A stretch of DNA of 64,000 nt from Candidatus Microgenomates bacterium (lineage in GTDB: Bacteria; Patescibacteriota; Microgenomatia; UBA8517; JACQJR01), in the NCBI GenBank assembly GCA_016204995.1, contig JACQJR010000001.1:241132-305131 (forward strand). The letters run 5' to 3'. A program made the position numbers and the translations under genes. Under the pieces are notes generated by a model that was not told the DNA's origin, searched no databases, and saw only the letters and a program-made list of their open reading frames with translations. This document shows positions 24 through 60,472 of the stretch, piece by piece. Position 1 is the first letter of the stretch. Each line of letters opens with the position of its first letter.

Positions 24-1733
24 TTAAATTTTTTCTAAAATATCAAACGCTGGTTTACCATCCAGAAAATTTATTGTTTTAATTAAATGAAAGTCAGGAG
101 GATAATTAGACGGACTAGTTATTAAAATAGTTCTGCCACTTGTTGGTACTTCCCCTCCACTTTCCATCTTCCACTTTCCATCTTCTCCGCTAGGTATTTG
201 CCAATCATTTACAAAATAAAACTTATCAAAGCGATCTATCCAAAACCAATTAGACTGACCAAAACGAATTAAGTTGGGATCATTTATATAGTTGGCTGGA
301 TCCCAAGGCCAGTAAAATAAAATAAATTCATGTGGCTCGCCATATTTTTTAGTCATAATAATTTGATCATAACTATTATAATTATCTTTGATAAATCTAA
401 CGGCTTCCTTATATCCATATTGCCAAGACCAAGAATATTCTACCCGATATTTACCAGCATAGGTAGTAATGTAATTCTCAAAAAAAGCGGCTAATAAAAC
501 AATATAAAACACTATAGCAATTAATTGAAAATTCTTCTTGGTGATCCACTTCCACATGATTACCAAACCAATAGCTGCAAGAAGTTGCGGCATCGGCTGC
601 ATCACAATACTACGCAAAGCGTGCGGAGCTTCACGAGTAACGCTAGCGGCAATCGGACTGAAGAAAAGCCAAGATAAAATTAGCAAACTTTCTTTATTTT
701 TATTTTTAACTAACCAGATTAAGCCAATAATTATAAAAGCCAACTCTGTAGGATAAATTAAACCCTTACCTGGTATATTAAATTGATATTGGCTGCCACC
801 GTTAAAAAATAAAAATGAAGGTGAGAAATAGGAGAAATAATTTTGTATAAATTTTTCTCCCACAAAAGTAACCTTATTATGCAATAGCAAAGGCAAGGGT
901 GATGGTAATTTAGAGGTATTTCTTTCTTTATTAATTTGAGAGATCGCCCCCTCATCTAAAATTCCCACCCAGCCATAGCGGGCCAAGCCCACCGGATTTA
1001 GAAGCTGCCAAAACATAGGAAGGAAGAGGAGGGCAATAGGCAATAGGCAATAGGCAATAGTTTTCCTTTGCTTTTCCCACATCTCTTGAAAATAGTTTCT
1101 ATAAATAATTAATAAACTAATCATTAAAAGGGGTACGAAAATTCTGACAGAATTATAAGTCCAAACTGATAAACCAAAAAAGGTTATACCTATGAATAGA
1201 CGCCACCTATTACTCAATCCACTAACAAAAAAATAACTACCAGCTATAGTCAGAAATAGAGCTAAATTTGCTTCCACCGCAACACGGGATAAAAATAAAT
1301 CCCAAGGCTCAATCGCGACAAAAAAGGCAGATAAAATACTAATTTCTTGTTTCTTTAATAAGGTTTGTACAAGTAAATAAGTAAAGATTATTGTACCCAA
1401 ACCAGCCAAAACCGAAACTACTCTGACTGAAAATTCATTTAAACCAAAGATGGCAATAAAAGGAACAAGGCTATAAATATAAACCGGCAATTTATAGTCT
1501 CCATAGGCGCGAAAAATAGTAGGTAAAGTTACTCCCCACTCATCTTGACCTGTTTTTAAAATGGAATAAGCATTAACCCCGTGAGAAATTTCATCCCAAT
1601 TAAGAGCAGGAGGCAACTGTGTGACATTATAAAAACGCAGCAAAGCGGCTAAAATAATAATTAAAACTAAAAATTTATTTTTAATGAAGAAATCAATAAT
1701 CCTCTGCATATTTTTCCTTGCTGGGATCAACAA
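24..1733 (-). CDS. GT-C fold membrane glycosyltransferase, GT39/PMT_2 (ArnT/PMT-like) family
   Basis: 569-aa polytopic ORF; N-terminal loop 'NWDEISHGVNAYSILKTGQDEWGV' (DE-loop typical of COG1807/PMT_2); paralogous to 1693..3369, 6188..7996, 58817..60472; carries in-frame (GGCAATA)x4 at 1032-1060; internal Met at 1709 may be true start. Confidence 0.65.
   Translation of the reverse strand: MLIPARKNMQRIIDFFIKNKFLVLIIILAALLRFYNVTQLPPALNWDEISHGVNAYSILKTGQDEWGVTLPTIFRAYGDYKLPVYIYSLVPFIAIFGLNEFSVRVVSVLAGLGTIIFTYLLVQTLLKKQEISILSAFFVAIEPWDLFLSRVAVEANLALFLTIAGSYFFVSGLSNRWRLFIGITFFGLSVWTYNSVRIFVPLLMISLLIIYRNYFQEMWEKQRKTIAYCLLPIALLFLPMFWQLLNPVGLARYGWVGILDEGAISQINKERNTSKLPSPLPLLLHNKVTFVGEKFIQNYFSYFSPSFLFFNGGSQYQFNIPGKGLIYPTELAFIIIGLIWLVKNKNKESLLILSWLFFSPIAASVTREAPHALRSIVMQPMPQLLAAIGLVIMWKWITKKNFQLIAIVFYIVLLAAFFENYITTYAGKYRVEYSWSWQYGYKEAVRFIKDNYNSYDQIIMTKKYGEPHEFILFYWPWDPANYINDPNLIRFGQSNWFWIDRFDKFYFVNDWQIPSGEDGKWKMESGGEVPTSGRTILITSPSNYPPDFHLIKTINFLDGKPAFDILEKI
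1032..1060. repeat. (GGCAATA)x4 heptanucleotide tandem repeat, in-frame in CDS
   Basis: four perfect 7-bp units within 24..1733. Confidence 0.7.
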
Positions 1734-3369
1734 TTAAAACAGCAGGCTTACCATCAGGATAAATAACAGTATGCAGGGTAGCTATTTTTTCAGGAAATTC
1801 GCCTTTTTGCCCCACTAATAAAACTCCTGATAAATTCTGATCTTCTTGGTAATTAATACTACGAAATATATATTTACCAAGATGATATTCGCCTAATTGG
1901 TCTAAAAATGAACGGCCTTCTTTCTCATAACGCAGCCAGTCTGGGGATTGCTTTTGATAATCTCCCGCGTCCCACTGGTTGTAAAACGCCACATAAATAT
2001 GTGGTTCTGATAAAGACCTACTGATAATTACTTGCTTATAATCTCCCTCTATTTTTTTTACTAAATCCATCGCTTCTTTTCTGCCATACAGCATTGAGGA
2101 CGCTCCATGGATTGGCGCGTGATAAAAATAAGATTCCAAGAAAAATAAAATCCCTACCAGCCCAATAGCCCAATAGCCCAATAGCCAAAAGCGCCAGAAA
2201 GTCAACTTATTGTTTTGTCTCCACCAATTAAATAACGTAACAGCGCCAAACGCTGAAAAAATTTGTATGGCCGGCATCATAGTAGCTGCTCGGTTGGCAG
2301 CAAATCCCGGACCTTTGGTCAAGGCCGCTGGGATAGGAGCAAGCAAAACCCAAATTACGATTAATAGTATAGTTAAATCACGTTTTTTAATTACAGCCCA
2401 AATAGCAACTAAGATGAAGGGCAATTCAAATAAATAAAGTGCCCCCATTCCCGGAATCATTCCATAAGTCCACTCACCAGCCCCTTGTGTGAATAAAAAG
2501 ATGGGGGATAAGTAGGAAAAATAATTTTTAATAAATTCACTAGTAATGTAAACTAATTTATTAGAAAAAATTCGTGCTGTTATATCTGGTAAGCCTTGTT
2601 GTACTGCTTCATATCTGCGATCTGCCACCGCCCCCCATCCACCCGTAGGATTAAAAATAGCAATATCACCAGCCCGACTAGTACTACCTCCAAAAATAGA
2701 TAAAAATGATATGCTTAAAAAGAGTAAAAAGATCCCTACCGCTATTTTTACTGATAATGTCTTCTTAATTTCTTGCCGTTTCCACCACAATAACATTAAT
2801 ACAATTAATGGCGTTAACAATTTAGCTGAATGGTAGGAAAAAAGATTAAGGCCGAAAATTACCGCCGCCACCATCAGAAATTGTGGCTTTTTGATACCTT
2901 TTAAGGAGAGCCAAATACCCAAAGGTAATAAAAGTGTCGTTAAATTTGCCTCAAAAGCACCTCTGGATAAAGACATATGCCAAGGAGAAACGGCTAGCAA
3001 TAGTGCCGACAGAAGTGCCATTTTTTGCTCTTTAAATAATTCTTTTACTAATAAAAAGACTATTAATACCCCTAAAATACCTAAGATCGCATTAGGCAAC
3101 CTGACGGCAAATTCGTTTAAGCCAAAAATAGCAACAGTCGGTATGGCTAAATAGGTATAAAGCGGAGCTTTAAAATCCCCGAAAGAACGAAAAGTTAGAG
3201 GTAAGGTTTGACCCCACTGATCTTTGCCGGTTTTTAAAATAGAGTAAGCGTCGTAACCAAAAGAGGCTTCGTCAGGCGTAAAACCATTTGGATAGCTGTC
3301 AATTCGCCACAACCTCAAAAGGCTTGCTAGAACTATAATGGCCAACAAAATCCAACGTGTCTTACCCAC
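1693..3369 (-). CDS. GT-C fold membrane glycosyltransferase, GT39/PMT_2 family
   Basis: 558-aa ORF; 'FTPDEASFGYDAYSILKTGKDQWG' loop, many TM helices; carries in-frame (CCCAATAG)x3 at 2161-2186. Confidence 0.7.
   Translation of the reverse strand: MGKTRWILLAIIVLASLLRLWRIDSYPNGFTPDEASFGYDAYSILKTGKDQWGQTLPLTFRSFGDFKAPLYTYLAIPTVAIFGLNEFAVRLPNAILGILGVLIVFLLVKELFKEQKMALLSALLLAVSPWHMSLSRGAFEANLTTLLLPLGIWLSLKGIKKPQFLMVAAVIFGLNLFSYHSAKLLTPLIVLMLLWWKRQEIKKTLSVKIAVGIFLLFLSISFLSIFGGSTSRAGDIAIFNPTGGWGAVADRRYEAVQQGLPDITARIFSNKLVYITSEFIKNYFSYLSPIFLFTQGAGEWTYGMIPGMGALYLFELPFILVAIWAVIKKRDLTILLIVIWVLLAPIPAALTKGPGFAANRAATMMPAIQIFSAFGAVTLFNWWRQNNKLTFWRFWLLGYWAIGLVGILFFLESYFYHAPIHGASSMLYGRKEAMDLVKKIEGDYKQVIISRSLSEPHIYVAFYNQWDAGDYQKQSPDWLRYEKEGRSFLDQLGEYHLGKYIFRSINYQEDQNLSGVLLVGQKGEFPEKIATLHTVIYPDGKPAVLIVDPSKEKYAEDY
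2161..2186. repeat. (CCCAATAG)x3 octanucleotide tandem repeat, in-frame in CDS
   Basis: three perfect 8-bp units within 1693..3369 encoding 'WLLGYWAIGL'. Confidence 0.7.
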
Positions 3370-6187: not shown

Positions 6188-7996
6188 TTATTTTTGAGAA
6201 TTAAGGGTCAACAGGTAAAATGCTGGCTCGCCGGAAGGATAAGCAATGGCCCGGATAAGTTTAAGATTTTTCGGCAGTGTCCCCGGCTCTTGAATAATAT
6301 TGACATTAAATTCCTTAGCATTGGCTAGATAAAGGGTTTTCTCATCTAAAAATTCGGATAAGGAGTAAATTCCGCTTTTAAGAGGGGGGGAGGCAAAATA
6401 GAATTTATCCAGATGAGAAACTAATCCATAACCCGGTAAATCGGTTTTGGGGAAAGGAAAATTTTCCTGCCATTTTTGTGGAGGGTACTGGTAGGCACCA
6501 GCAAAGAAAATCCACGGAGGCTCACCTGCAGTTGAAATAATAATTTTGTCAAAATTATTTTCCTCCGCTTTAATTGTTTTAACAGCCTCTTGCCAGCCAA
6601 AATGCCACCATCTCTCACTTTCCCACGGATAGTGCACCCAAAAACTGTGTTGGTAAAGTATAAATGTTAAAACATATACTCCACCTATAGCCAAGGCTAC
6701 AGTTTTTTTCCACCTAGCAGATACATTAAGCCAAATCCCATAAACACCAAAGGCAATTAAAAATATTAAAGTAGGTAGCAGGAAAAATAGGCGGGTGGCA
6801 TGCATTCCACCATCACGAGTTAGAACAGCTGGAATAGGGGCTGCTAATATCCAAAATACAATTAAGGTTTTCATCTTGCCATTAACAGGAGAAACTATAA
6901 AGAAGGCGAGACCTGCCAGCAGGAAAATTAAATCAATCCTATAAAGCTGACCCATTTCGTTTAAGGAATGCCTTAAATTTAAATCTCCCTGAATAAAAAG
7001 AAATTGAGTGGAAAAAACTTGCAAATAGTTACGGACAAACATATTCCACCAGTAAAGCAATTTATTATGAAATACCCTATCAACTAAACTAGGTTGAGCG
7101 CCAAACTTAACATCGGGGTCAGCCACTTTAGCATCACGTAACCTATCCCAGCCAATTTGAGGCACTACAGTCGGATCAGTAAAAATAGACAAATAAGAGA
7201 AGCGGGCAGTACCACCGCCAAAGACCGTGCTATAAGCAATAGGACTACCCACTAAGAATAAAGCAACCACTGACCACAGTAGCCATTTTTTCCCTGCTTT
7301 AAATATTTCCTTCCGGTAAATCAATACCAACGCCGTCAGAAACAAAGGCATAAAGAGCTTAGCCGTACTATAAACCCACGGAGTTAGAGCAAAACATGCA
7401 GCAGACCACGGCAGCCATTTTCCATTTTTCAGTCCACGTAAGAAAAACCAAAGGCCGGCTAGAAAAAATGTCAACATTTGTGTCACTTCAAACCCCGCCC
7501 GGGAGTATTGAATATGCCAAGGAGAAATGGCTAGGAAAAGGGCGGCAAGGATTGGCAAAGACGGGTGGCGGGGGCGGAGGGAGTCCCGACGAGTGCCCGC
7601 AGCGTTCAGCGAGGACATCGGGCGGGACGAGCCCCCGGCAGGACCCGTCGTCCCCTTTAATAATTCCGATATTAATGAATAAAAAATCCAAACTCCTAAA
7701 ATTCCAAAAATGGCGGCTGGAAGTCTTACCCCCAAAGGAGAAATGCCAAAAAGAGCCACCGTTGGTACGGCACTATATAAATAAAGGGGAGTTCTCCATT
7801 CGGCAAGGGACTGAAAATGGAGTGGCATAAAGTTACCAGAATAATCACGACCTGTTTTCAAAATTGAATATGCTTGATAGCCGAGATCCAACTCATCTCC
7901 AAACAAGGAAACCGGTACCTGATCCAGCCGCCATAATCTTAAAAATGAAGCAATTAACAAAATTCCAACGAGCAATAATGGTATCTTCTTTAGCAT
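6188..7996 (-). CDS. GT-C fold membrane glycosyltransferase, GT39/PMT_2 family, carrying in-frame GC-rich element
   Basis: 602-aa ORF; 'FGDELDLGYQAYSILKTGRDYSG' loop; cytoplasmic loop interrupted by ~34-aa 'GTTGPAGGSSRPMSSLNAAGTRRDSLRPRHPSLP' absent from paralogue 1693..3369. Confidence 0.7.
   Translation of the reverse strand: MLKKIPLLLVGILLIASFLRLWRLDQVPVSLFGDELDLGYQAYSILKTGRDYSGNFMPLHFQSLAEWRTPLYLYSAVPTVALFGISPLGVRLPAAIFGILGVWIFYSLISELLKGTTGPAGGSSRPMSSLNAAGTRRDSLRPRHPSLPILAALFLAISPWHIQYSRAGFEVTQMLTFFLAGLWFFLRGLKNGKWLPWSAACFALTPWVYSTAKLFMPLFLTALVLIYRKEIFKAGKKWLLWSVVALFLVGSPIAYSTVFGGGTARFSYLSIFTDPTVVPQIGWDRLRDAKVADPDVKFGAQPSLVDRVFHNKLLYWWNMFVRNYLQVFSTQFLFIQGDLNLRHSLNEMGQLYRIDLIFLLAGLAFFIVSPVNGKMKTLIVFWILAAPIPAVLTRDGGMHATRLFFLLPTLIFLIAFGVYGIWLNVSARWKKTVALAIGGVYVLTFILYQHSFWVHYPWESERWWHFGWQEAVKTIKAEENNFDKIIISTAGEPPWIFFAGAYQYPPQKWQENFPFPKTDLPGYGLVSHLDKFYFASPPLKSGIYSLSEFLDEKTLYLANAKEFNVNIIQEPGTLPKNLKLIRAIAYPSGEPAFYLLTLNSQK
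7558..7652. repeat. GC-rich palindromic element, copy A (in-frame within GT39 gene)
   Basis: GACGGGT at 7560-7566 and ACCCGTC at 7643-7649 (reverse complements); internal hairpins (GGGACGA..TCGTCCC); GC-rich in AT-rich CDS; shares GACGGGTG...GCGG.GGGAG.CCC.ACG...GGCAGGACCCGTCG with copy B. Confidence 0.6.
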
Positions 7997-16668: not shown

Positions 16669-17493
16669 TCAATTTTTCTGCTGTTGCATTTCCCATAACT
16701 TGGCATATCTGGCAAAAACACTATAACCTTGGTAAAAAGAGAAAATAATACCGGCGGTTCCATCTAAAAATCCTAGTTTTAAAATTAACCGGCCCCATAC
16801 TTCACTTACTACTGGTCTAACAAATCTCCACCATGTCATTTTTGGATGACCGCTATCGTACAATAATTTTGCTTCTATTTCTGACCATTTATTAGTTTTT
16901 TTAATCATATCTTCTAAATTATCCTCTTTTAAATGAATGAAAGCATTTTTTAAATAACCAATTTCTCCCTCAATTTTTGGCTGCTCATGTAATTCTCCTT
17001 CCCAACGGATTAATTTATCTTTTTTAATCAAACGAATGACATAATCAGGGTACCAGCCGCCGTGGCGTAATTCTTTCCCAAAAACAAAATTACGTCTCGG
17101 AATAGCAAAAGCCGCCGGTGACGGGTGACTCGCGGCGGGGAGCCCCACGGAAGGGGCCCCAGAGTTGTTACCTGGTGGAATGGCCGTGGGGCTGCCGCGA
17201 GGCAGGACCCGTCGGCTGATTTCCTCACGTAATTCCAGAGTTACTCTCTCATCTGGATCAATATAAAATAGCCACTCACTTTTTGCCACCTCTTTTCCCT
17301 GATTTCTCCAAGTATCATAACTACCAGCTTTTTGTTTAAAAATTCTGGTGCCATATTTTTTGGCAATCTCTAAAGTTTTATCAGTTGACCCAGCGTCCAA
17401 GATAATAATTTCTCCTAAATCTTTTGCTGATTCCAAACAATCAGTTAATTTTTCAGCCGCATTTTTGGTTAAAATAATTACTGAAATATTCAT
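16669..17493 (-). CDS. GT2 family glycosyltransferase carrying in-frame GC-rich element
   Basis: 274 aa; 'ISVIILTKNAAEKLTDCLESA...IIILDAGSTDKT'; ~32-aa insert 'LPRGSPTAIPPGNNSGAPSVGLPAASHPSPAA' absent from paralogue 18398..19294. Confidence 0.75.
   Translation of the reverse strand: MNISVIILTKNAAEKLTDCLESAKDLGEIIILDAGSTDKTLEIAKKYGTRIFKQKAGSYDTWRNQGKEVAKSEWLFYIDPDERVTLELREEISRRVLPRGSPTAIPPGNNSGAPSVGLPAASHPSPAAFAIPRRNFVFGKELRHGGWYPDYVIRLIKKDKLIRWEGELHEQPKIEGEIGYLKNAFIHLKEDNLEDMIKKTNKWSEIEAKLLYDSGHPKMTWWRFVRPVVSEVWGRLILKLGFLDGTAGIIFSFYQGYSVFARYAKLWEMQQQKN
17118..17215. repeat. GC-rich palindromic element, copy B (in-frame within GT2 gene)
   Basis: GACGGGT 17120-17126, ACCCGTC 17207-17213; internal inverted repeat CCCCACGG..CCGTGGGG; same orientation and reading frame ('HPS' tripeptide) as copies A and C'. 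Confidence 0.6.
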
Positions 17494-18401
17494 GAGTTAA
17501 AACTCCCCTTCCCTAAATTTCCCAAATAATAATCTATCACTCCCCGTTTCTGCCATTTTCTGCCATTAAAAAGTAAGCGGATTGATTCACGCAGCAGGGC
17601 AAATTTAGCTCTCATATTGGCGTATCTAGCAGCAAACAACAGACGATTTCTGGTAATATAATAATCGTTTAAGCTGCTGCCGATGCCTGAACTTTGGGCC
17701 ACTTTATGCCAAAGAATTGCTTTAGGGTTATAAATAATTTTAAAACCGGCTTGTTTTGCCCTTTGGCAAAAATCAGCATCTTCCAAATATAAAAAATAAT
17801 TTTTGTCAAAAAAACCAATTTTGTTAAACACTTCTTTGTTAACAAATAAGCAGGCTCCTGTCGCATAATCTATTTCGCTAGTTTCGTTATATTGCCCTTT
17901 ATCTACCTCATCCACTCCCTGATGTGACAGTAAAACATTCTTCCAATCAATTAAACCACCAGCATACCAAATCACTTTCCCCAGCTCATCTTTTTTATAC
18001 CTACTTTTATGAAATTCAAACCCATTGGCGAAATATATTTTAGGTGATACTATTCCTGCAACAGGATATTTTTCTATTGTTTTAATTAATTGAATGGCTA
18101 AGTTTTTATCTACCACCGTATCATTATTAAGAATCATTACATAATCTGCCTCGTCCTCTAAAGCGGCTCTAATTCCCACATTATTCCCTTCCGCATAGCC
18201 CAAATTCTCCTTGTTTTCTATAATTTTGCACTTTGCACTTTGCACTTTTAACTCTTCCACCAATCCATCTTTACTTCCATTATCCACTACATAAATTGAT
18301 AATTGATAATTGATAATTGATAATTTTTCAATGCTCTCTAAACATTGCATGGTATCTCTTTTGCCATTCCAATTAAGGATTACAATCGCTACTTTTTTCA
18401 T
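17490..18401 (-). CDS. GT2 family glycosyltransferase
   Basis: 303 aa; 'VAIVILNWNGKRDTMQCLESI...VVDNGSKDG...ENKENLGYAEGNNVGI'; contains two perfect heptamer tandem repeats (18225-18248, 18294-18325). Confidence 0.8.
   Translation of the reverse strand: MKKVAIVILNWNGKRDTMQCLESIEKLSIINYQLSIYVVDNGSKDGLVEELKVQSAKCKIIENKENLGYAEGNNVGIRAALEDEADYVMILNNDTVVDKNLAIQLIKTIEKYPVAGIVSPKIYFANGFEFHKSRYKKDELGKVIWYAGGLIDWKNVLLSHQGVDEVDKGQYNETSEIDYATGACLFVNKEVFNKIGFFDKNYFLYLEDADFCQRAKQAGFKIIYNPKAILWHKVAQSSGIGSSLNDYYITRNRLLFAARYANMRAKFALLRESIRLLFNGRKWQKRGVIDYYLGNLGKGSFNS
18225..18248. repeat. (TTTGCAC)x3 heptanucleotide tandem repeat in GT2 CDS
   Basis: perfect; degenerate homologue at ~10900 in paralogue. Confidence 0.7.
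18294..18325. repeat. (AATTGAT)x4.5 heptanucleotide tandem repeat in GT2 CDS
   Basis: perfect; encodes 'LSIINYQLSI'. Confidence 0.7.
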
Positions 18402-19294
18402 TTTGTCAGCCTGCGGAGAACTTTGGTAAGAATAGTGGGTCTTCTCATTCTTTTAGCAACTAACCAATGATCAATTTCTCCTTCGGCAGCGGCTATTTCA
18501 TTATTAACTTCATGCGGATTAAGATTTATGACTTCAAATTTAGCCAGTTCCCAAATTTTTAAATATAATACCAACTCTGAAAACGATTGCAGCAAACAAA
18601 CAGCCAATCCATGCACCCCATCTTTATAGCCTTCTCCCGCTAAAAATCTGCTAACAAATTCTCCGCTGGGTTTGGCAATTAAATCACGCCAGTTAAATTT
18701 ATAACCATCTTCTATTTTAAGTTTCGCTTGAACCGTAGTGTAACGATCAAGTCTCGCTAAATATTGCGATATTGATTGATAGTTGTGATGAACAATGGCT
18801 AAAGGTTCTTCATCTGGCAGATCTTGACCTATACCATGAGTTTCTGGCACTGAATGAATAAGCTCACTCCATAAAACCTGATCTTTTTTAAAAAAACGGA
18901 TATTATAATCCGGCCACCAGCGGGCATGCCTAATCCACTGCCCAAAAATTATATTCTTGCGGGGTAGGCGATAAAAATCAGCCTCACTATCCTGGCTTAT
19001 GCTCTGCAATTTTTTAGCTAATCTATCGGGAATTTCCTCATCAGCATCCAAAATTAAAATCCAGTCGCCCGTGGCTTTACTAAGAGCAAAATTGCGGGCC
19101 GGCTCCACATAACCAATATACTTATGATTAAAGACTTTCGCTCCCAGTTTTTTAGCTATCTCTTTAGTATCGTCGTTAGATTCCATATCTACTACTATAA
19201 TTTCACTAGCTAAATTTTTTATTGAGGCAATGGCCCGAGGTAAGTTTTTCTCTTCATTCCAGGTATTAATGACAACTGATATATTAGACATCAT
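18398..19294 (-). CDS. GT2 family glycosyltransferase
   Basis: 298 aa; 'ISVVINTWNEEKNLPRAIASI...IIVVDMESNDDT...ILILDADEEIP'; paralogue of 16669..17493. Confidence 0.75.
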   Translation of the reverse strand: MMSNISVVINTWNEEKNLPRAIASIKNLASEIIVVDMESNDDTKEIAKKLGAKVFNHKYIGYVEPARNFALSKATGDWILILDADEEIPDRLAKKLQSISQDSEADFYRLPRKNIIFGQWIRHARWWPDYNIRFFKKDQVLWSELIHSVPETHGIGQDLPDEEPLAIVHHNYQSISQYLARLDRYTTVQAKLKIEDGYKFNWRDLIAKPSGEFVSRFLAGEGYKDGVHGLAVCLLQSFSELVLYLKIWELAKFEVINLNPHEVNNEIAAAEGEIDHWLVAKRMRRPTILTKVLRRLTK

Positions 19295-19311: not shown

Positions 19312-21045
19312 TTAGTTCACGCGATATATAACCACTTCTTGATTTTCAAATATGTTAGTTAGCCCTAATTGGCCCTCGCCTAGACGAAAACGTTGGCCAA
19401 AAACCGGTGTTTGATTTAATACCAGATAGAGATAATGAATTTTGTTATCAGCCAAGAATTTTTGCACCTCTTCCTGATTAAGACTATCAAAAGGCAGCAT
19501 TGATTTCTCCCGTCTGTTTCTCCAATCAAAACCGGTAATATTTAAATTAATTTCATCTTCCAGATAAGTGGGATGTTGGGAGAAGGCTGACACATAGGCA
19601 CTAGAGGCATATAGATAAAGCGGCCTAGGAGGATTATTGACCGCCAGTTCTGCTTTATATTCATCAAAAGGATAAGTTAAAACCACGCCTTGCGGTTGCT
19701 TTTCCAAAAATTTGAGAGCCGCTAGCTCCTGGTGGGAAATTTTAGCCGGCGGCCGCATTGGCAAATAACTAAGGCTCAAAGTACCAATCGTGGTCGACAA
19801 AGTTAATAAAACTACTAAAATAATAAGCCAGGTTTTTTGTTGAGCCAACCAAATTCCGGATAATATGGACATCACAAAAAGTGAATAGTAAAAAAATTGA
19901 ATTGTATTCCAAGGGGTGCCGGATTGCAAAAAAAACATGGGCAAAATTATTCCCAATGAGGCCATCACTAATAAAAATAAATCTATCTGGCTAAATTTTC
20001 TCCATAATTTATTCTTGATGATTCCATATACTCCCACCACCCTAGTTCCCATATTACCCACTAAAAATATTAAAAATGCTATAAAATAAGCCGGAATAAG
20101 CTTAAGAAAAATATGGCCAGTTTTATAATTCATTAATGCCTCATAAAATCTGGGCCAGCCAAATCTATCCGATACCGCCATCATGGTTTCCAAAAACCAG
20201 AAAGGCTGGAAAACGATCATTTTTTGTGAACCGCTATTTAAGGGCAAAAAAAGTAGCATGGATAAAACTGCTGATCCGCCAAATATAGATAAAAATGTAA
20301 ATTTACCACTTTTAATTAATTGATAGATACCAATTACCAGAAGACCTGCTAAAGCCAAAATACCAGCATAAATTTTAATTTCTGCCAGCAAACCAAAAAA
20401 AATAATTGCCAATGCTAAATGCCAAATGCTAAATTTGTTTTTGAGTTTTAAAATTAAAATTGCGCCCGAGAGAAGCAGAACTAACGACATGGCAAACGGT
20501 GGATTAATCAATGTGGAAATAGATTGCTGCGACCAAAAAAGTGATTCTCCGCCAATTTGTTTATTACGAATTAAAGTCACAATCCAACCAAAATCTCCCG
20601 CAAAATAGACAAAAAAAGTGGCCCATAAGGCCTCACGGGAAGAATTTCGCCATAACATTACAAATCTATAAGTCAGCCAACCAACCAAAACCGCCAAAAG
20701 CGTTGGTAAGATTTGAAAATAAAGTGTAATGGCAGGGATTTGTGTTAATTTATGAATCCAAGCTAGTATTAAATCAAAGCCAATGTGATAGTTGCGAATA
20801 TTTTCCCCGGAAAAAATCGGCATTTCCCAAGAACCGCGAGATAAACTATTAATCAAGGCAAGATGCCAGACTCCATCATGACCATTCGGCCCCCAAAAAC
20901 CCATCCCAAAAGGATAAATCAAACCGCTTTTGACCATGGTTAAACTCCAACTTAAAGAGCCCAAGAAAATAACTAACAGAATAGATAAATTATTTTTTCT
21001 TAAAAGTGGCATAAATAGTTGTAAAATCTCGCCAAATTTGGCCAC
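19312..21045 (-). CDS. polytopic membrane protein, function unknown (possibly Wzy-like polymerase/ligase)
   Basis: 577 aa, >10 hydrophobic segments plus C-terminal soluble domain; located immediately downstream of wzx-like gene; no diagnostic motif recognised. Confidence 0.35.
   Translation of the reverse strand: MAKFGEILQLFMPLLRKNNLSILLVIFLGSLSWSLTMVKSGLIYPFGMGFWGPNGHDGVWHLALINSLSRGSWEMPIFSGENIRNYHIGFDLILAWIHKLTQIPAITLYFQILPTLLAVLVGWLTYRFVMLWRNSSREALWATFFVYFAGDFGWIVTLIRNKQIGGESLFWSQQSISTLINPPFAMSLVLLLSGAILILKLKNKFSIWHLALAIIFFGLLAEIKIYAGILALAGLLVIGIYQLIKSGKFTFLSIFGGSAVLSMLLFLPLNSGSQKMIVFQPFWFLETMMAVSDRFGWPRFYEALMNYKTGHIFLKLIPAYFIAFLIFLVGNMGTRVVGVYGIIKNKLWRKFSQIDLFLLVMASLGIILPMFFLQSGTPWNTIQFFYYSLFVMSILSGIWLAQQKTWLIILVVLLTLSTTIGTLSLSYLPMRPPAKISHQELAALKFLEKQPQGVVLTYPFDEYKAELAVNNPPRPLYLYASSAYVSAFSQHPTYLEDEINLNITGFDWRNRREKSMLPFDSLNQEEVQKFLADNKIHYLYLVLNQTPVFGQRFRLGEGQLGLTNIFENQEVVIYRVN
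20409..20434. repeat. 13-bp direct repeat CAATGCTAAATGC/CAAATGCTAAATT in CDS
   Basis: followed by TTTTTGAGTTTTAAAATTAAAATT; within 19312..21045. Confidence 0.5.
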
Positions 21046-22564
21046 CCAATAAAATATGAAGCATGGCTATATAAGATAACAAACCTACTATTACTAAAAT
21101 AATTACTCCCAGCCAATTTAAGGTAATAAGATTACCAGTTATAAACATCACCAAAGCCATGCCAATACTAGCTGTCAAAGGATAGCCTACGCTTTCCAAT
21201 AAAACTACATTGACAAAACGTTTACTCCACACAATTGCCACAATTGAACTTATTCCCACTAACATAAAACCTAATGCCGCCCCATTAATAGAATAGCGGC
21301 TAGCCAGCAAAGGAACAAAAATCCATGTTAAAACAGTCCACATCACCATCAAGCGAAATGTAACGGCAATTTTACCGATACTGTTAAGCATATTAGTTAA
21401 AGGCGTGGAGACCGCTGCAAAAGCCGAGTTAACACTGATGAAAGCCAAAGCCAAAAGAGCCGGCTGCCATTGGGCGTATTTGGGAATTAAATGGGTTAAA
21501 GGTTCAGAAACAAACACCAAACCGACCAAAGCCGGAAAGACCAGCAAACAGATAAAGAAAAGTGAACGCGAGACCGCATTGGCTAGCTCTCTTTTCTCAT
21601 GCTGCATCCGGGAAAAAGCCGGAAAAGTCACTTTAATCACCTGGTCCATAAAAAATCGTAGCGGTGCTTGCGCCCATTTTTGGGCCCAACCCAAAAGACC
21701 GATACCGGCCGGGCCGATAATACCGCCTAAGACTAAGGTCATACCATCATCCTTGACCATCGCCAGCATAGTATTAGCCTGATAAGGCAAACCAAATTTT
21801 AATAATCCCCCTAAATATTGCCTATTCCATAAAAATCCCGGCTGCCAGGGCCGCAAAATATAAATTATCACTACTCCCACTATGCCCCGAGCTACCACCG
21901 CCACTGTAAAACTAGTAATACCAAAGCCCTGCCAGGCTAAAATTACGGCTATACTGTAAAAAACAATCGTCTCGGCAATTTGGGGAATAATTAATTTGTT
22001 AAATAACAATTCCCGTTCCAGTAAGACCGAGGGAATAGTTTTTAAAGAGGATAAAAAGAGAGAAAATGTTAAAGCCCACAGCAAGTATACCGAAGGCTGG
22101 GAAAGTTTATACCAGTTCTGAAAAAGGGGAGTTAAAGAAAAAATTAGAATAATTACTCCTAATACCAATATCTGTTGTACTGTAAAAACAGATTTTAATT
22201 CGCGCTTATCCAGCCGGTCTTTTTTTTGAATTAAAGCTGCGGCCAAGCCGATATCAGAAAAATAGGCAAAAAAGTTAATGACTGCTGAAACCAAAAAGAA
22301 AACTCCAAATTGAGTTGGAGTTAAAAAAATTGTTAGTAAAAATGTAGCCAGTAACGCTATTACCTGAAGAATAAAAGTCCGGCCGGTTAAAGCCACTACT
22401 CCCTTAACTGCCCGTCTCTTAACAGTCTCCAGAGATATTTCCTCGGTAGGACCCGTGCTGAGCCCAGCCGAAGCATCCAGATGTTCGGCAGCAGTAATCC
22501 CCACCCCTAAATTGTAGCAGAAATCCGCATTACACCATACCTTTAATTTGTTAAAATTATTCAT
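20990..22564 (-). CDS. wzx: Wzx-like oligosaccharide flippase (MOP superfamily polysaccharide biosynthesis protein)
   Basis: 524 aa, 12-14 TM; 'TIFLTPTQFGVFFLVSAVINFFAYFSDIGLAAALIQKKD' typical Wzx/RfbX N-terminal region; first ~45 aa (GC-richer) may be 5' UTR rather than coding. Confidence 0.7.
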   Translation of the reverse strand: MNNFNKLKVWCNADFCYNLGVGITAAEHLDASAGLSTGPTEEISLETVKRRAVKGVVALTGRTFILQVIALLATFLLTIFLTPTQFGVFFLVSAVINFFAYFSDIGLAAALIQKKDRLDKRELKSVFTVQQILVLGVIILIFSLTPLFQNWYKLSQPSVYLLWALTFSLFLSSLKTIPSVLLERELLFNKLIIPQIAETIVFYSIAVILAWQGFGITSFTVAVVARGIVGVVIIYILRPWQPGFLWNRQYLGGLLKFGLPYQANTMLAMVKDDGMTLVLGGIIGPAGIGLLGWAQKWAQAPLRFFMDQVIKVTFPAFSRMQHEKRELANAVSRSLFFICLLVFPALVGLVFVSEPLTHLIPKYAQWQPALLALAFISVNSAFAAVSTPLTNMLNSIGKIAVTFRLMVMWTVLTWIFVPLLASRYSINGAALGFMLVGISSIVAIVWSKRFVNVVLLESVGYPLTASIGMALVMFITGNLITLNWLGVIILVIVGLLSYIAMLHILLGGQIWRDFTTIYATFKKK

Positions 22565-27859: not shown

Positions 27860-29317
27860 TTATTGAATCTTCGCCACTATGGATTTGATTTCAGTGGAAA
27901 GAATATCTTTCGGAATACCGCCTAAATCTTCATAGAAAACTTTGAGGTTGAAATCGTGATATAACAATTGCAGGGCGTCGGAATTATTTAAAATATAAGC
28001 AGCTTGGCGGGAACTACCTCCCCAATCGCCAGAAATTTTCGGGTAACTGGGATCATTTACGAAATAAACTATGGCACCCTTGGGTAAAGTTGGATAAGTA
28101 GTTAAAACGTTATTAATTAATTTCTCGGCAATCCTACCACGAACTGCCGCCGGATAAGTTCGATCACCCAATTTAATTGACGTCACTGACAACACCACCA
28201 AAGAAGTAATTAAAATCACTTTCAATAAATTCATTTTATTAGAGAAAATTAGATAACCTATCACTCCCCAAAAAGCCGGCAGGGCTGGTGCTAAATAGTA
28301 AGTTGATTTATGAAGTGGAAGTAAAATTACCGGCGAGATAGCTATGGGAAACCAAAATAGTAGAAAGATAAATTTTTTGTCTAGTAAAGCTGATTTATTT
28401 TTTCGCCACAAGTTAATTATAAAAATAATTATTAATCCGATTGATAAGAAAAATGCCGGGAAAATAATTTTAAAATAATCTCCCCAAAATTTCATTAAGT
28501 TTGGATTAAGCGATAACTTGGGGCCAATAAAATCAATCAGCATTTCCGGCATACCCGCCGCCCACACAGTGTACCAGGCAAAGGAATTAATTATTTTTGG
28601 CAGAGAAAATACTGCCTGGTATTGAGCATCTTTTTGTAAAAGACCAATTTTGACAAAATCCAGATAGATAAAAATTAACAGTATCAGGAAAAAAGGCCAG
28701 ACCATTTTGATATTTTTTCCTTTAATCCAAACCATTCCCAGCATCAAGAAAGGCGTGGTAATTGCCAACTCATGCGAGGCTAGTGATAGTAGAAAAACAA
28801 CTAGCGATAAAATCCACCATTTTATTTTTCCCTCTTGGAGATATTGCCACCAGCAAATTAGAGTTAAGAGCATGAACATGGTGACTCCCAAAGCTTGAAT
28901 TCCACCGGCCAAATAATAAAGCAGTGCTACATTCGCAGCAGTTATCCTAAAGAAAAAAGCTGTGAATAGCGATAAAAACTTTTTGGCAAAAATTTTCTGC
29001 ATTAATGTATAAACCAGTACTGTATTAATTAAATGAATGGATATTGACAGTAGGCGAAATGGTAAATGATTAAGACCGAATAATTGATAATAAATATTAA
29101 ATAATCCTTCCCGGAAAACAGGCCGGTAAAAGGCATAGCCTCGCTCGGAAAAACTGGGAAAGCCAAATAAATTGATAAAACTTTCTAGCTTGCCATCAGT
29201 TAAACTGGCTTTAAAATGAAAAAAATCATCCTGGGAAAAATAAACTCCCAAAACGGGAGAATAAATCCACAAAACAAAAAGGCAGACTAAAATAAGAGGC
29301 CACCACCTACTTAACAT
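27860..29317 (-). CDS. polytopic membrane protein, putative GT-C fold glycosyltransferase
   Basis: 485 aa; 'FSQDDFFHF...GYAFYRPV' acidic first loop; many TM helices. Confidence 0.45.
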   Translation of the reverse strand: MLSRWWPLILVCLFVLWIYSPVLGVYFSQDDFFHFKASLTDGKLESFINLFGFPSFSERGYAFYRPVFREGLFNIYYQLFGLNHLPFRLLSISIHLINTVLVYTLMQKIFAKKFLSLFTAFFFRITAANVALLYYLAGGIQALGVTMFMLLTLICWWQYLQEGKIKWWILSLVVFLLSLASHELAITTPFLMLGMVWIKGKNIKMVWPFFLILLIFIYLDFVKIGLLQKDAQYQAVFSLPKIINSFAWYTVWAAGMPEMLIDFIGPKLSLNPNLMKFWGDYFKIIFPAFFLSIGLIIIFIINLWRKNKSALLDKKFIFLLFWFPIAISPVILLPLHKSTYYLAPALPAFWGVIGYLIFSNKMNLLKVILITSLVVLSVTSIKLGDRTYPAAVRGRIAEKLINNVLTTYPTLPKGAIVYFVNDPSYPKISGDWGGSSRQAAYILNNSDALQLLYHDFNLKVFYEDLGGIPKDILSTEIKSIVAKIQ

Positions 29318-31058
29318 GAGAAAGTTTAAAACTGTGTTTTCTTTTCCACAAGATACGAAGCAAGATAAACCAAGAAATTAAGGAAATCATATTACCCACA
29401 GTGCGAATAGGAGTATTAGTCAGTCTCACTTCCAGTTTATGATCTCCCTGGGGAACCAATAAACTAATTCTAGCTAAATCATCCTTAGGCAGAACTTTAA
29501 TTTCTGTCTTTTTGCCATCTATCCAGGCTTTCCAATTAGGAAAGTTGAAAATATTAACAACCACTGTCGCATTATCAGAATTAACCTTTATGTTAGTTTT
29601 TAACCAGTTCGTACCTTCTTTTGTTTGACTAAATTCAGCCTTACCACTGTCTATCTCCAATGGTTCTTTACGAGCTGACTGTGGGGCAATTCTAGCACCC
29701 TTTGGCAAGTAATCATAAATACCGGCTGTTTGCTGCAGTCTCCAAGCCTCTCCGGAAAATTTTTCCTGATCTGTGACCGGCCCGGTTCTTTCTACTCTAA
29801 AAAAGTTGAAATTAAAAATAATTAAAAATATTAGTAACGCAGAAATAATTGCTTTGCCTATCACACGTAAAGGAGCTAGTAATACGACAAGGGCTCCGGC
29901 TAAAAAGCTTAAGGAAAAAATAGTCAAAGTTAAAAAGCGCCAGGGGAATTGGACTATAGACAAAAATGGAAAGGTTAACCAAATCGGCGTAGATCGACTA
30001 TGAGCCATAAAGGCTGCTCCAATACCCACCACCAGCAGAAAACCAACCAAAGCTACCAAATTAAGGTTAAATTTCTTTTTCTTTTTAAAAATGATGCTCG
30101 CTATAGTGAGCACTACAATTACCAAAGCCAGTATCCAATGAACATGGCCGACGGGAAAAGCCATTCCGTCTCCATCCATCCAGACCGAAGCCCCATAGCC
30201 CCAAAAACGAGAGAAGAATAATTGCTTAAAAGTGGCAAAATGGGCAATATACTCATAATATCCTTGAGTCAAAGTCTCCACATGTACTAAATTTTTCTCA
30301 AAAAAGACCGGCAAGGTAAAAAAGGCTGCCAGTCCTATTCCCCAAATTCCCCCTATAGCCAGCATGGGTACTTTATTAAATTTACCTGTGCGCCATAACC
30401 ACCATAGAGACCAGACCGCCAGGACCGGCGTAAATATCAGAACCATGATGTTATGTGACAACAATAATGCTGCCCAAGCAAGAGCTAAAATCATCACCCA
30501 TTTCAAAATTGAAGACGGGTGATCCCGCTTAGCGGGAGCAGGACTCGTCGAAACAATTAATTTATAAGTGCTCCATAAAAGTAAAGGAAACCAAACTAAA
30601 GCCCAACTCTCATTCATAGCTCCCCTAACAAAAACATCTAGGGCATGATATGGCGCCCAAATATAAAAAGTCGCCGAGACTACCCCACCAAAACGTCCCC
30701 AAAATTCTTTGGCCAGTAAATACATCGTAAAACCAGAAAGCATTATGCTTAGTAAAAAGATAATTTTGGCAACCTCGGTAAAATGAAAACCGACTAGTCT
30801 AAATACTTGTCCAACAAGATATGGCAATGGAGGATAATAGTTAAATAGGGGGAAACCGTAGCCATATCCCATATCCGGCACCCAACGGCAAGGGATTTGT
30901 AAGTCTTTAAAACATTTCTCAAGTTGTAGTTGTCTCATCATCTGCAAATCATCATGCATGGGAAAATATCCCGGCAATAATAAATCGCGTGAGGCCAAAA
31001 GACTAATAAAAATTAGCAGTATAGGTACCCAAAATTTCGTCAACCACTTAACTATCAT
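29307..31058 (-). CDS. PTPS-related (PF10131-like) polytopic membrane protein, putative GT-C
   Basis: 583 aa; 'PMHDDLQMMRQLQLEKC' HDxxxH/R N-terminal loop; paralogue of 60472..62103; carries 12-aa in-frame mini GC element. Confidence 0.5.
   Translation of the reverse strand: MIVKWLTKFWVPILLIFISLLASRDLLLPGYFPMHDDLQMMRQLQLEKCFKDLQIPCRWVPDMGYGYGFPLFNYYPPLPYLVGQVFRLVGFHFTEVAKIIFLLSIMLSGFTMYLLAKEFWGRFGGVVSATFYIWAPYHALDVFVRGAMNESWALVWFPLLLWSTYKLIVSTSPAPAKRDHPSSILKWVMILALAWAALLLSHNIMVLIFTPVLAVWSLWWLWRTGKFNKVPMLAIGGIWGIGLAAFFTLPVFFEKNLVHVETLTQGYYEYIAHFATFKQLFFSRFWGYGASVWMDGDGMAFPVGHVHWILALVIVVLTIASIIFKKKKKFNLNLVALVGFLLVVGIGAAFMAHSRSTPIWLTFPFLSIVQFPWRFLTLTIFSLSFLAGALVVLLAPLRVIGKAIISALLIFLIIFNFNFFRVERTGPVTDQEKFSGEAWRLQQTAGIYDYLPKGARIAPQSARKEPLEIDSGKAEFSQTKEGTNWLKTNIKVNSDNATVVVNIFNFPNWKAWIDGKKTEIKVLPKDDLARISLLVPQGDHKLEVRLTNTPIRTVGNMISLISWFILLRILWKRKHSFKLSHVK
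30514..30549. repeat. GC-rich palindromic element, short form C' (in-frame within PTPS-related gene)
   Basis: GACGGGTG-atCCCGCTtAGCGGGag-caGGACtCGTCG; termini as in A/B around a perfect 6+6 palindrome; encodes 'STSPAPAKRDHPSS' absent from paralogue 60472..62103. Confidence 0.5.
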
Positions 31059-58816: not shown

Positions 58817-60472
58817 CTAAATCGTTGACCACAAGGTGTAAACTATCCCGCTGTCTGGTCGCTTGATTTGATTAAGAATTTTTACCATCCTCCTCAAATT
58901 CAGTTCGTAATCACAACCTTCTCCATCCACTACCAACATCTTAGGTGACTCCGGAGCAGCCAAAACATCCTTGCTGGGACAACGTTGACCGGTAAATTCA
59001 AAATTCTCTGTTGTCCAAACCCCTTTTTCCCGCTTAATGGCATCTCTGTTAAAAGTTGCCGGATCGCGACCGGTGAAGAAAGCAATCCAGGGGTAGGGAT
59101 CATCAGGAATATCAGTCAGAACAATCTTGTCGTAATTATTTTGCACTTTATTTAATTCTTGAGCCAGTTCCTTGGCGCCGATATTTCTATATAATGACAC
59201 ATTGAATTTAGCATGCGTGTAATATTGATGAAGATAGAAGATAAAATTGGCCACCAGTAAAAAAGAGGTTAGATAGAGAGTCGGTTTTTTAAACCTTTTT
59301 AAATTAAAAATAAATTCCAACCCATAAGCCCCAATAATCGCGATGAAGGGAATCATAAATAAGGCCCGATGTAAATTTGGAGCATCCTCTGTAGTTAAAG
59401 CCGCCGGAATGGGGGCAACCAATAATAAAAGTAGCGGCAGAAAATTTTGTTTGCCGCGCACAATAGCCGCCAGACCTATAAGTAACAGCAATGCCTCAAT
59501 ATAAGTTAATTGGCCTACGCCCACTGTCAAGTAGCGCAGAGGTTTACCTGTTGATCCAATTAAGAAATCAGCACTGAAATATCTGGTATACTCGTTAATA
59601 AATCTTCTGGCATAAACTGACAATTTATTATGAAAAAGACGAGCGATAAAAACTTTATTTGGCCCTTCCTCAAAAGGCATCTTTGATAACTCATAATGCA
59701 CATCAAGATCATTAAAAATTGACACTTGGGAAAATCTGCTTCGGGCTTGGGAATCTAAAGAAAAAAACAGAGTAGTCAAAGACACTGCTATCAATACTCC
59801 TACTGCCACCTTTTTTATCTTAATCCCCAAACTTCTCCAATAGTAAAAAACGACCATGCCGATAAATAGCGGCGCTAATAATCTAATTGAGTGATAGAAG
59901 AAATAACTTAATATAAGAAAGAACACTCCCCAGATTAAAAATTTTCGCGTGATCGTATTTAAAAACCTAATCAATAAATAAATTCCCAAAAGGGCCAAAA
60001 ACATGGATATCACCACTTCACTGGTAGCGCGACTAACGCTGATATGCCAGGGATTAATAGCTAGTAGCAACGACGCTATGATGGCCACCCTTTTTTTATT
60101 CGTTAACTCGCGTGTTAAAAAATATAAAACTAAGATCGTCAATGCTCCAAACAAGGCGCTTGGCAATCTGACAGCAAATTCACTCTTTCCGAAAAGGGCC
60201 AGCGAGGGAATAATGGTGTAGAAAATTCCGGTGGGGCGATAATCACCAAAACTGTTGTAATAAAGGGCCAACTTATTACCCCTATCGTCTAGCCCTGTCT
60301 TTAAGATGGAATAAGCATTCCAGCCGGCTTTTACCTCATCGTTATGGAAACCAACCGGAAAATTATTCAATTGAAAAAGACGTAAAAATAATGCTAGAAG
60401 GAAAATTAAAACTAGGGGCCTAGTAAAAAATGACAATTTAATCACCACTGTTCCATTGTACAATATGAACAA
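58817..60472 (-). CDS. GT-C fold membrane glycosyltransferase, GT39/PMT_2 family
   Basis: 551 aa; 'FHNDEVKAGWNAYSILKTGLDDRGN'; ORF-track start is TTG sharing a base with the divergent gene; internal TTG ~60436 preceded by GGTGA is an alternative. Confidence 0.7.
   Translation of the reverse strand: MFILYNGTVVIKLSFFTRPLVLIFLLALFLRLFQLNNFPVGFHNDEVKAGWNAYSILKTGLDDRGNKLALYYNSFGDYRPTGIFYTIIPSLALFGKSEFAVRLPSALFGALTILVLYFLTRELTNKKRVAIIASLLLAINPWHISVSRATSEVVISMFLALLGIYLLIRFLNTITRKFLIWGVFFLILSYFFYHSIRLLAPLFIGMVVFYYWRSLGIKIKKVAVGVLIAVSLTTLFFSLDSQARSRFSQVSIFNDLDVHYELSKMPFEEGPNKVFIARLFHNKLSVYARRFINEYTRYFSADFLIGSTGKPLRYLTVGVGQLTYIEALLLLIGLAAIVRGKQNFLPLLLLLVAPIPAALTTEDAPNLHRALFMIPFIAIIGAYGLEFIFNLKRFKKPTLYLTSFLLVANFIFYLHQYYTHAKFNVSLYRNIGAKELAQELNKVQNNYDKIVLTDIPDDPYPWIAFFTGRDPATFNRDAIKREKGVWTTENFEFTGQRCPSKDVLAAPESPKMLVVDGEGCDYELNLRRMVKILNQIKRPDSGIVYTLWSTI

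Follow-up and report, generated by a model that had tools for sequence, protein, structure and literature searches.

The stretch analysed here, a 64-kb window of a Candidatus Microgenomates contig, carries a 37-bp GC-rich hairpin sequence at 30514..30550, inside a minus-strand gene at 29307..31058. This host gene codes for a 583-residue polytopic membrane protein, PTPS-related/YfhO-like as judged from its paralogue, the alignment of orthologues and the Pfam matches of the latter. The 37-bp sequence is probably a shortened copy, in part decayed, of a GC-rich hairpin repeat which is non-autonomous and similar in general kind to repetitive extragenic palindromic sequences (REP/REPIN) and to the Rickettsia palindromic elements (RPEs).

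The short copy and its host gene

On the plus strand, 30514..30550 reads GACGGGTG-AT-CCCGCT-T-AGCGGG-AG-CA-GGACTCGTCG. The initial annotation assigned 36 bp to it and placed its end at 30549, but the string given there counts 37 bases and ends at 30550. The copy itself, assigned to the minus strand from its sequence, fold and covariance-model match, reads CGACGAGTCCTGC TCCCGC TAA GCGGGA T CACCCGTC in what we call orientation A; the minus strand is also the sense strand of the host gene. A closing stem, P1, is formed by GACGGGT (30514..30520, plus strand) and ACTCGTC (30543..30549, consensus ACCCGTC), as both sequence and folds indicate, and its arms are common to two longer copies starting at 7560 and 17120. 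The inner stem-loop CCCGCT T AGCGGG (30524..30536) is aligned to stem P2 of the covariance model and sits in place of P2 and the variable tip of the long copies; the tip itself is gone. The 6+6 palindrome CCCGCT/AGCGGG is exact, as originally described, and folds into 6 bp with a 3-nt loop as both RNA and DNA. Between the two stems lies a conserved asymmetric junction, AGCAGG on the plus strand (30537..30542; consensus GGCAGG, CCTGCC in orientation A), which faces GAT at 30521..30523.

Compared with the long copies, the short one has two substitutions in the core, GACGAGT for GACGGGT and CCTGCT for CCTGCC in the sense orientation. The substitution in P1 results in a G.T pair on the plus strand and an A.C mismatch on the minus strand. 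DNA folding gives -7.4 kcal/mol for the minus strand (z -1.5) versus -11.2 kcal/mol for the plus strand (z -3.1).

The host open reading frame (ORF) reads through the short copy as ...IVSTSPAPAKRDHPSSILKW..., and the insert occupies residues 170-183, a hydrophilic loop flanked by two hydrophobic segments. The peptide STSPAPAKRDHPSS was reported to be encoded here and missing from the paralogue at 60472..62103; the paralogue indeed has a 12-residue gap at this position. The "PTPS-related" label is roughly right, since many orthologues match PF10131 or PF09586 (YfhO), but the host ORF itself has no Pfam match at E<=0.01 and the paralogue has a sub-threshold PF10131 match only. The host protein is identical to the hypothetical protein HY404_01285 of a Candidatus Microgenomates metagenome-assembled genome.

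Most orthologues (56 of the 60 aligned) have no insert in this loop. Longer inserts are present in the same loop of orthologues P0006, P0008 and P0009, and the corresponding DNA (loci L004, L002 and L003) contains 86-124-bp copies with the same ends. The interior of the L002 and L003 copies resembles that of the window copy at 7560..7650, which resides in a different gene, so the same sequence is found at non-homologous places. In a neighbour-joining tree the query and the insert-bearing orthologues form one clade, where they are intermixed with empty ones; the filled P0009 and the empty P0005 are 95% identical as proteins and 95.6% as DNA. Another GC-rich hairpin of 39 nt (CGACCCGCCCGCAGCGTCTGAGCGCAGCTCTGGCGGGCT) is located at about 3348..3386 of L003, in a gene of the same family as the host. 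It is cleanly absent from the 95.6% identical allele L129, and its ends are unlike those of the hairpin repeat.

Other copies in the window

The window has just two other sites at which both termini of the short copy are found together, one of 91 bp at 7560..7650 and one of 95 bp at 17120..17214, both on the minus strand. The two-ended pattern gave 0.00 matches over 100 dinucleotide-preserving shuffles. A covariance model trained on 28 short copies from other genomes, with no window sequences included, recovers the short copy (30509..30554, minus strand, 30.2 bits, E 6.9e-6) as well as 17120..17214 (E 1.2e-5) and 7560..7650 (E 9.6e-5); the next match in the window has an E value of 3.9. All three copies are GC islands (65-68%) in a window of about 36% G+C. 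The proposal that the short sequence is a miniature derivative of a longer GC-rich element is supported; it keeps both conserved ends of the two long copies.

Both full-length copies, like the short one, are in frame with the genes around them, all of which are glycosylation genes. The 7560..7650 copy, within the PMT_2-family ORF 6188..7996 (minus strand), is a clean insertion adding 29 residues relative to the paralogue 1693..3369, and homology resumes in frame downstream. The 17120..17214 copy, within the GT2 ORF 16669..17493 (minus strand), is a clean insertion of about 26 residues which splits the Glycos_transf_2 domain; the paralogue 18398..19294 is gapped there. The three window copies fold alike, into P1, the asymmetric junction and a second stem, and the tips of the two long copies are wholly different.

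In the gene-sense orientation A all three read CGACGGGTCCTGCC ... CACCCGTC. Their 3' end is read as CAC CCG TCn (HPS) in all three genes, and their 5' end as TTGPA or STSPA in two genes and as RRVLP in the third. Since the 5' end is read in different frames, the shared thing is DNA and not a peptide. This bears on the alternative that the 37-bp stretch is no repeat at all but a selected peptide linker of the host protein or a chance GC-rich run. In favour of it, the encoded peptide forms a hydrophilic loop between two hydrophobic segments. The frame differences and the model match (E 6.9e-6) refute this explanation, the use of all usable frames and both orientations elsewhere and the absence of chance matches in shuffles also speak against it, and we give it practically no credence.

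Two further candidates in the window, 2606-2649 and 22439-22492, were rejected as copies. A lone match to the 5' core with one mismatch (GGTAGGACCCG on the plus strand) lies at 22447..22457, in the minus-strand ORF 20990..22564; it has neither a partner arm nor a hairpin and is either a remnant or a chance match.

Distribution of the repeat

Genomes, one per species, were scanned with the exact two-ended pattern at an allowed length of 36-96 bp, which leaves the copies longer than 96 bp in L002 and L003 outside the scan, and the loci were examined as 8-kb stretches. Because an exact core was demanded in this and the metagenome scan, conservation of the core is overstated, diverged copies are missed, and P1 is invariant by construction. 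The genome-wide search for the terminal motifs, suggested as a check in the initial annotation, returned at least 119 loci and at least 128 matches. A metagenome scan limited to short forms added 41 loci, with credible members of 27-51 bp. The condition set there for giving up the miniature-derivative reading, that the terminal motifs have no additional matches, thus clearly does not hold.

Ruminal Saccharibacteria (Nanosyncoccus) account for most of the listed loci. Other listed hosts are Roizman-, Gottesman- and Doudnabacteria, Omnitrophota, Planctomycetia, Delta- and Gammaproteobacteria, a complete Rickettsiella genome, Nitrospirales and several Actinomycetota. About ten high-GC matches among those listed lack a hairpin and look like chance. 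The same 23-nt core is found in at least eight phyla with differing interiors, and in one Roizmanbacteria genome five copies at unrelated loci are almost identical to each other.

Plasmids and phages yielded no match to the core. The only match in viral contigs (L172) is probably a chance one, being GC-rich and lacking the GTCACCCGTC end; this contig shares its length (27,992 bp) and sample number with that of the metagenome locus L146 and is probably identical to it. No Rfam family matched the window and nine loci at the gathering threshold (tRNAs only), and Rfam searches in E-value mode yielded nothing above noise for L034, L012 and the window segments 7500-7710 and 30440-30620. Literature searches by core sequence and by topic found no description of this hairpin-repeat family.

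Structure of the repeat

The family core is GACGGGTCCTGCC ... GTCACCCGTC, and the foot GACG.../...CGTC is present in all copies. The base of the structure consists of the 7-bp closing stem GACGGGT/ACCCGTC and, in orientation A, the asymmetric junction CCTGC versus TC. Above it comes a second, covarying stem, P2, followed by a variable tip, which is about 0 to 130 nt long. A compensatory variant of P1, GGCGGGT/ACCCGCC, is frequent among the loci.

In the alignment of the 28 short copies, the outer and inner stems have changed on both sides in nine out of ten variable pairs, and 83% of cells are paired. The covariation score is 0.26, compared to 0.05-0.09 in slid controls, and none of 500 shuffles reaches the observed value. 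The structure is thus selected.

The stem is often extended outwards by complementary flanks: an extension of at least 3 bp is found in 30 of 129 copies, against one of 129 in a shifted control. These flanks vary even among copies of one Roizmanbacteria genome (aaattct/agaattt, gtagatc/gatctac, gaattgtt/aacaattc). The conserved ends are the base of a hairpin, often continuing into variable complementary flanks, and not transposon-style terminal repeats.

An apical motif GTGCTCG ... TGCGCGC (a "Microgenomates-type" interior), in which a T.G opposition is invariant and is followed four pairs further down by a mismatch, recurs in L010, L028, L034, L037, L046, L060, L073, L029, L095 and the window copy 7560..7650. 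This interior is common to copies from Patescibacteria, Omnitrophota, Gammaproteobacteria and Actinomycetota. Partial 5' halves (CGGGTCCTGCC and a few bases) stand in tandem just before full copies in L003 (2297..2318), L022 (about 7490..7560, minus strand), L030 (4074..4104) and L068 (1341..1384, minus strand), an arrangement that points to either nested insertion or slippage at this foot. Reading the junction as a kink-turn was rejected: the second position after the bulge is G rather than A, and the register that gives GA breaks the closing stem. Resemblances to Y RNA, signal recognition particle RNA, the P4 helix of RNase P and transfer-messenger RNA (tmRNA) were dropped for want of model support.

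In-frame copies in genes of the Candidate Phyla Radiation

About 53 of the 142 fetched copies, and all three window copies, lie deep inside long ORFs. Copies outside the Candidate Phyla Radiation (CPR) are extragenic and lie between convergent genes or within a few bases downstream of a stop codon. Open frames of 240 nt or more border 43 copies on either side of the same strand, and 39 of these copies preserve the reading frame, compared with an expected one third. Orientation A is used in all three of its frames, and orientation B in the two that are free of stops. As the distances separating the conserved ends are not divisible by three, only insertions that restore the frame persist. Copies within CPR genes keep the frame, are free of stop codons in whichever frame is read and add 9-45 hydrophilic residues in loops. 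Judging by these reading frames, CPR copies are translated and not spliced out.

An example is the isoleucyl-tRNA synthetase (IleRS) of ruminal Saccharibacteria, whose length ranges from 959 to 1280 residues. At least 18 insertion blocks can be distinguished in it, several filled by copies of the hairpin repeat and others by different GC-rich inserts. Filled and empty alleles coexist among proteins that are 94-97% identical. The IleRS loci (L026, L058, L063, L077 and L125-L128; proteins P0121-P0240) also contain other recurrent GC-rich insert peptides, e.g., QHSAGASSHFDNGRGREACTEIQGR and QVVSPAGGRNDSFEGPKTRASAPERPEKESFGQDPLA, suggesting further families of coding inserts.

Orientation of the copies and a possible mechanism

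Within ORFs, 24 copies are in the sense and 29 in the antisense orientation relative to the host gene, and the non-CPR copies downstream of genes are split 5 versus 7. Nevertheless, orientation is uniform in 19 of 20 multi-copy loci (among the matches listed). The orientation-A strand (GACGGGTCCTGCC...) has a positive GC skew in 86 of the 119 loci listed (p ~1e-6). For copies inside ORFs this strand is G-rich in all 24 sense and 25 of the 29 antisense cases (49 of 53). In the window, GC skew of the plus strand is negative throughout, and all three copies have orientation A on the G-rich minus strand. Orientation thus follows DNA strand composition and not gene direction.

These data also bear on the possibility that the hairpin is not a selfish repeat but a cis element selected in place, with an RNA 3'-end stabiliser, a terminator or a binding site of a conserved protein as candidates and the copies inside genes as a side effect. 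Conservation of the 23-nt core in at least eight phyla despite differing interiors, covariation of the outer and inner stems, the location of non-CPR copies just after stop codons or between convergent genes, and the A-run/T-run flanks resembling bidirectional terminators in L019, L079 and L104 would all agree with such a role. However, copies occur in both orientations relative to transcription, downstream of genes as well as inside them, and their orientation tracks DNA strand composition instead. A strand asymmetry of G.U versus A.C is absent, with G.U counts of 128 and 119 for the two strands. Equal G.U counts and both orientations relative to genes leave no RNA strand assignable, which argues against a strand-specific RNA role. 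In addition, the T-run is missing from most copies and no Rfam family was matched at any threshold tried. We consider a cis element improbable. An intrinsic terminator in particular was rejected, as the window copies lie inside ORFs without a T-run and few foreign copies have one. Of the two strands, the one in orientation B (plus in the window) folds better in 93 of 109 low-GC copies.

If the repeat is instead viewed as a mobile element, the GC skew of the 8-kb loci can stand in for the direction of replication, as a proxy only. The leading strand, identical in sequence to the lagging-strand template, is usually the G-rich one. In the IS200/IS605 family (IS608, ISDra2) the active strand is fixed, and the elements work on the lagging-strand template (PMC5027513). 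Since orientation tracks GC skew and IS200/IS605 elements provide a lagging-strand precedent, we infer a replication-coupled step involving a single-stranded hairpin. The repeat may spread, or be retained, via a hairpin of single-stranded DNA on the lagging-strand template, on which a structure-specific enzyme would act in trans, by analogy with IS200/IS605 and REP/RAYT (REP-associated tyrosine transposase) systems; only frame-keeping insertions in tolerant loops would then survive.

Among 73 copies of the Saccharibacteria type, about 70% are directly preceded by CTCT[C/G] on the 5' side of the core and directly followed by [C/G]ATGT on its 3' side. The 5' pentamer seems to belong to the host at one IleRS site, where the 3' one seems to be new. 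This would fit insertion 3' of a target pentanucleotide, as seen from two filled/empty pairs only. At loci with antisense copies (e.g., L026, L058, L063, L077) the C-rich strand holds most long ORFs, IleRS included. Provided that skew reflects the direction of replication, these genes would be on the lagging strand, which is unusual for such genes.

Origin of the short copy

Two origins were proposed in the initial annotation, internal deletion of a longer copy and a minimal transposing unit made of the two termini. The length distribution, which it suggested comparing, shows short copies to be a sparse tail: among the matches listed, nine credible copies are 30-59 bp long, none 60-65 bp and 106 are 66-96 bp long. 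Most short copies correspond to a full copy minus a single internal block, with 92-100% identity. In Saccharibacteria short copies, the lost block lies between two CCCCC direct repeats. The short copy in L005 matches the full copy in L033 of the same genome and has the same second stem. Single gaps of this kind at direct repeats read as a signature of slippage across the hairpin, and "double-foot" REPs are known to arise by central deletion (PMC6006769).

According to the second option, the closing stem and the junction suffice for mobility, and the window copy was inserted as a unit of 36-37 bp. The conserved part of the family is exactly what short copies keep, identical 27-mers are present at two loci with different flanks (L147 versus L159/L161) and identical 30-mers at another two (L133, L170). 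The clean 39-nt indel between 95.6% identical alleles mentioned above also indicates that units of this size come or go. On the other hand, short copies are rare, most of them align to a full copy apart from a single internal gap, long copies occupy this loop in orthologues, and the window copy has two core substitutions. Taken together, these observations make a minimal mobile unit unlikely, though somewhat less so than a cis element, and internal deletion is the better supported of the two options.

For the window copy, internal deletion is favoured by analogy with the other short copies, by the long copies in the same loop of the orthologues and by its decayed core. A long copy may have lost its tip by slippage across the hairpin and acquired the two core substitutions afterwards, one of which would break the closing stem on the presumed active strand. 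Because of this break, the short copy is now most likely an immobile relic which simply encodes a loop extension of 12-13 residues.

Several observations weigh against this account of a decayed mobile repeat. No parent was found among the full copies: the inner stem does not resemble P2 of either long copy in the window, and full-length copies match it moderately at best. The 8-kb loci contain no mobilising enzyme, autonomous partner or REPtron-like arrangement, although no search of whole genomes for Y1 enzymes was made. No target-site duplication is seen in three filled/empty comparisons, where host bases beside the insert also differ. In the closest allele pair for the host gene, L003 and L129 (95.6% DNA identity), about 25 nt of host sequence on each side of the insert is also replaced (L003, about 2270..2435). 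Such a patch looks like exchange by recombination rather than clean insertion or excision, and fits recombination as well as transposition. Furthermore, the invariance of the core is partly a product of exact-match scans, GC skew over 8 kb only proxies replication direction, and plasmids, phages and viral contigs contribute nothing beyond one probably chance match.

Comparison with known repeats

The family resembles REP/REPIN, the CGTC-tagged REPs and the RPEs, all of which are small GC-rich hairpin repeats able to sit in frame, but it lacks the defining features of the first two. RPE-1 to RPE-8 were reportedly described by Ogata et al. in 2000 and 2002. Like the present family, RPEs are short palindromes of a small AT-rich genome, inserted in frame in unrelated genes including essential ones and translated as surface loops, with no target duplication and no transposase of their own. 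In-frame palindromic inserts in many unrelated genes, the main feature of RPEs, are therefore found here as well. In contrast to RPEs, the present core spans phyla and has a fixed asymmetric junction and a variable tip. To our knowledge, RPE consensus sequences are unrelated to this core and RPEs are confined to Rickettsia and relatives; we know of no report of RPE strand bias.

REP/REPIN sequences, associated with RAYT (TnpA-REP), are GC-rich hairpins of 30-100 bp, often located just after genes, which can form long hairpins with a conserved foot and a variable centre, have occasional in-frame intragenic copies and are thought to be handled as single-stranded hairpins by an HUH/Y1 enzyme (PMC3116915, PMC3333891, PMC6006769). 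The present family shares the hairpin size and GC-richness, the conserved foot with a variable centre and the short forms produced by central deletion. It differs in having no GT[AG]G head (the foot is GACG.../...CGTC and the flank profile is without GTAG), in arms that are not inverted copies of a self-folding unit, and in the large share of CPR copies that are inside genes instead of extragenic; no RAYT gene was seen beside copies in the 8-kb loci.

CGTC-tagged REPs (Di Nocera et al., 2013), which include Neisseria dRS3, RPE-4 and RPE-6, occur in several phyla with known intragenic copies, have no known dedicated transposase and are mostly paired into larger hairpins (PMC3733652). In them, CGTC is an unpaired tag beside a stem of 8-9 bp whose first two pairs are A/T; the loop has 4-5 nt and the tail is CCA (PMC3733652). 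The CGTC/GACG ends, the spread over several phyla, the intragenic copies, the lack of a known dedicated transposase and the pairing into larger hairpins are common to both families. Here, however, CGTC is paired within P1, the stem is the G/C-rich GACGGGT, the CCA tail is absent and the interior is long and structured (3-130 nt).

As in the IS200/IS605 family, there is a hairpin, no usual terminal inverted repeats, no target duplication and an orientation tied to the replication strand, here via the skew proxy (PMC5027513). IS200/IS605 elements have two subterminal hairpins and carry or derive from tnpA/tnpB, in contrast to the single hairpin with no associated gene found here (PMC5027513). 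The fixed CTCT[C/G] on the 5' side and SATGT on the 3' side in the Saccharibacteria type recall IS200/IS605 insertion 3' of a tetra- or pentanucleotide.

Yeast mitochondrial GC clusters are comparable GC-rich elements. In Nematomorpha mitochondria, both arms of the coding palindromes are long perfect repeats (PMC6649704). As in these mitochondrial cases, GC-rich hairpins invade the coding sequence of AT-rich reduced genomes and are read through, with different hosts and sequences. Two other classes were considered and rejected. A miniature inverted-repeat transposable element does not fit, as the inverted foot spans just 7 bp, the flanks are complementary in inverted orientation and not direct repeats, the filled/empty pairs show no duplication, and the loci contain no autonomous partner. 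In integron attC sites, the boxes R''/R' RYYYAAC ... GTTRRRY lie at cassette boundaries; the foot sequence here differs and the copies are inside genes.

Significance of the family

On its own, the 37-bp copy is a minor and ordinary relic, and the interest lies in its family. The foot is identical from Patescibacteria to Actinomycetota, occupation of CPR genes in frame is massive, with IleRS becoming up to about 320 residues longer, and orientation is set by DNA strand composition and not by transcription. It is possible, if doubtful, that the window copy is a relic of an uncatalogued pan-bacterial hairpin superfamily with a universally conserved 23-nt foot, mobilised on the lagging-strand template by a class of enzymes not yet linked to it. 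Such a superfamily would be a major ongoing source of protein length change in CPR, including the essential IleRS, PriA and topoisomerase I, and a novel chemistry of insertion, by entry into palindrome centres or by inverted copying of the target, could lie behind its variable, complementary flanks. Should the family be truly undescribed, it would offer a handle on how small palindromic repeats move without a known transposase, which is open for CGTC-tagged REPs and RPEs, and on how proteins of reduced genomes gain new loops. It would also help to recognise and mask inserts when annotating or modelling CPR proteins.

Genes and other features of the window

No tRNA or tmRNA was detected by a scan of the window, no half-sites were found bracketing a gene in the loci, and of the 74 Pfam families with matches among the 52 ORFs of the window, the 25 best represented include no transposase. 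The 64 kb are approximately a single glycosylation gene cluster, nearly all of it on the minus strand: the ORFs include 12 PMT_2 and 9 Glycos_transf_2 members as well as dTDP-sugar and epimerase genes.

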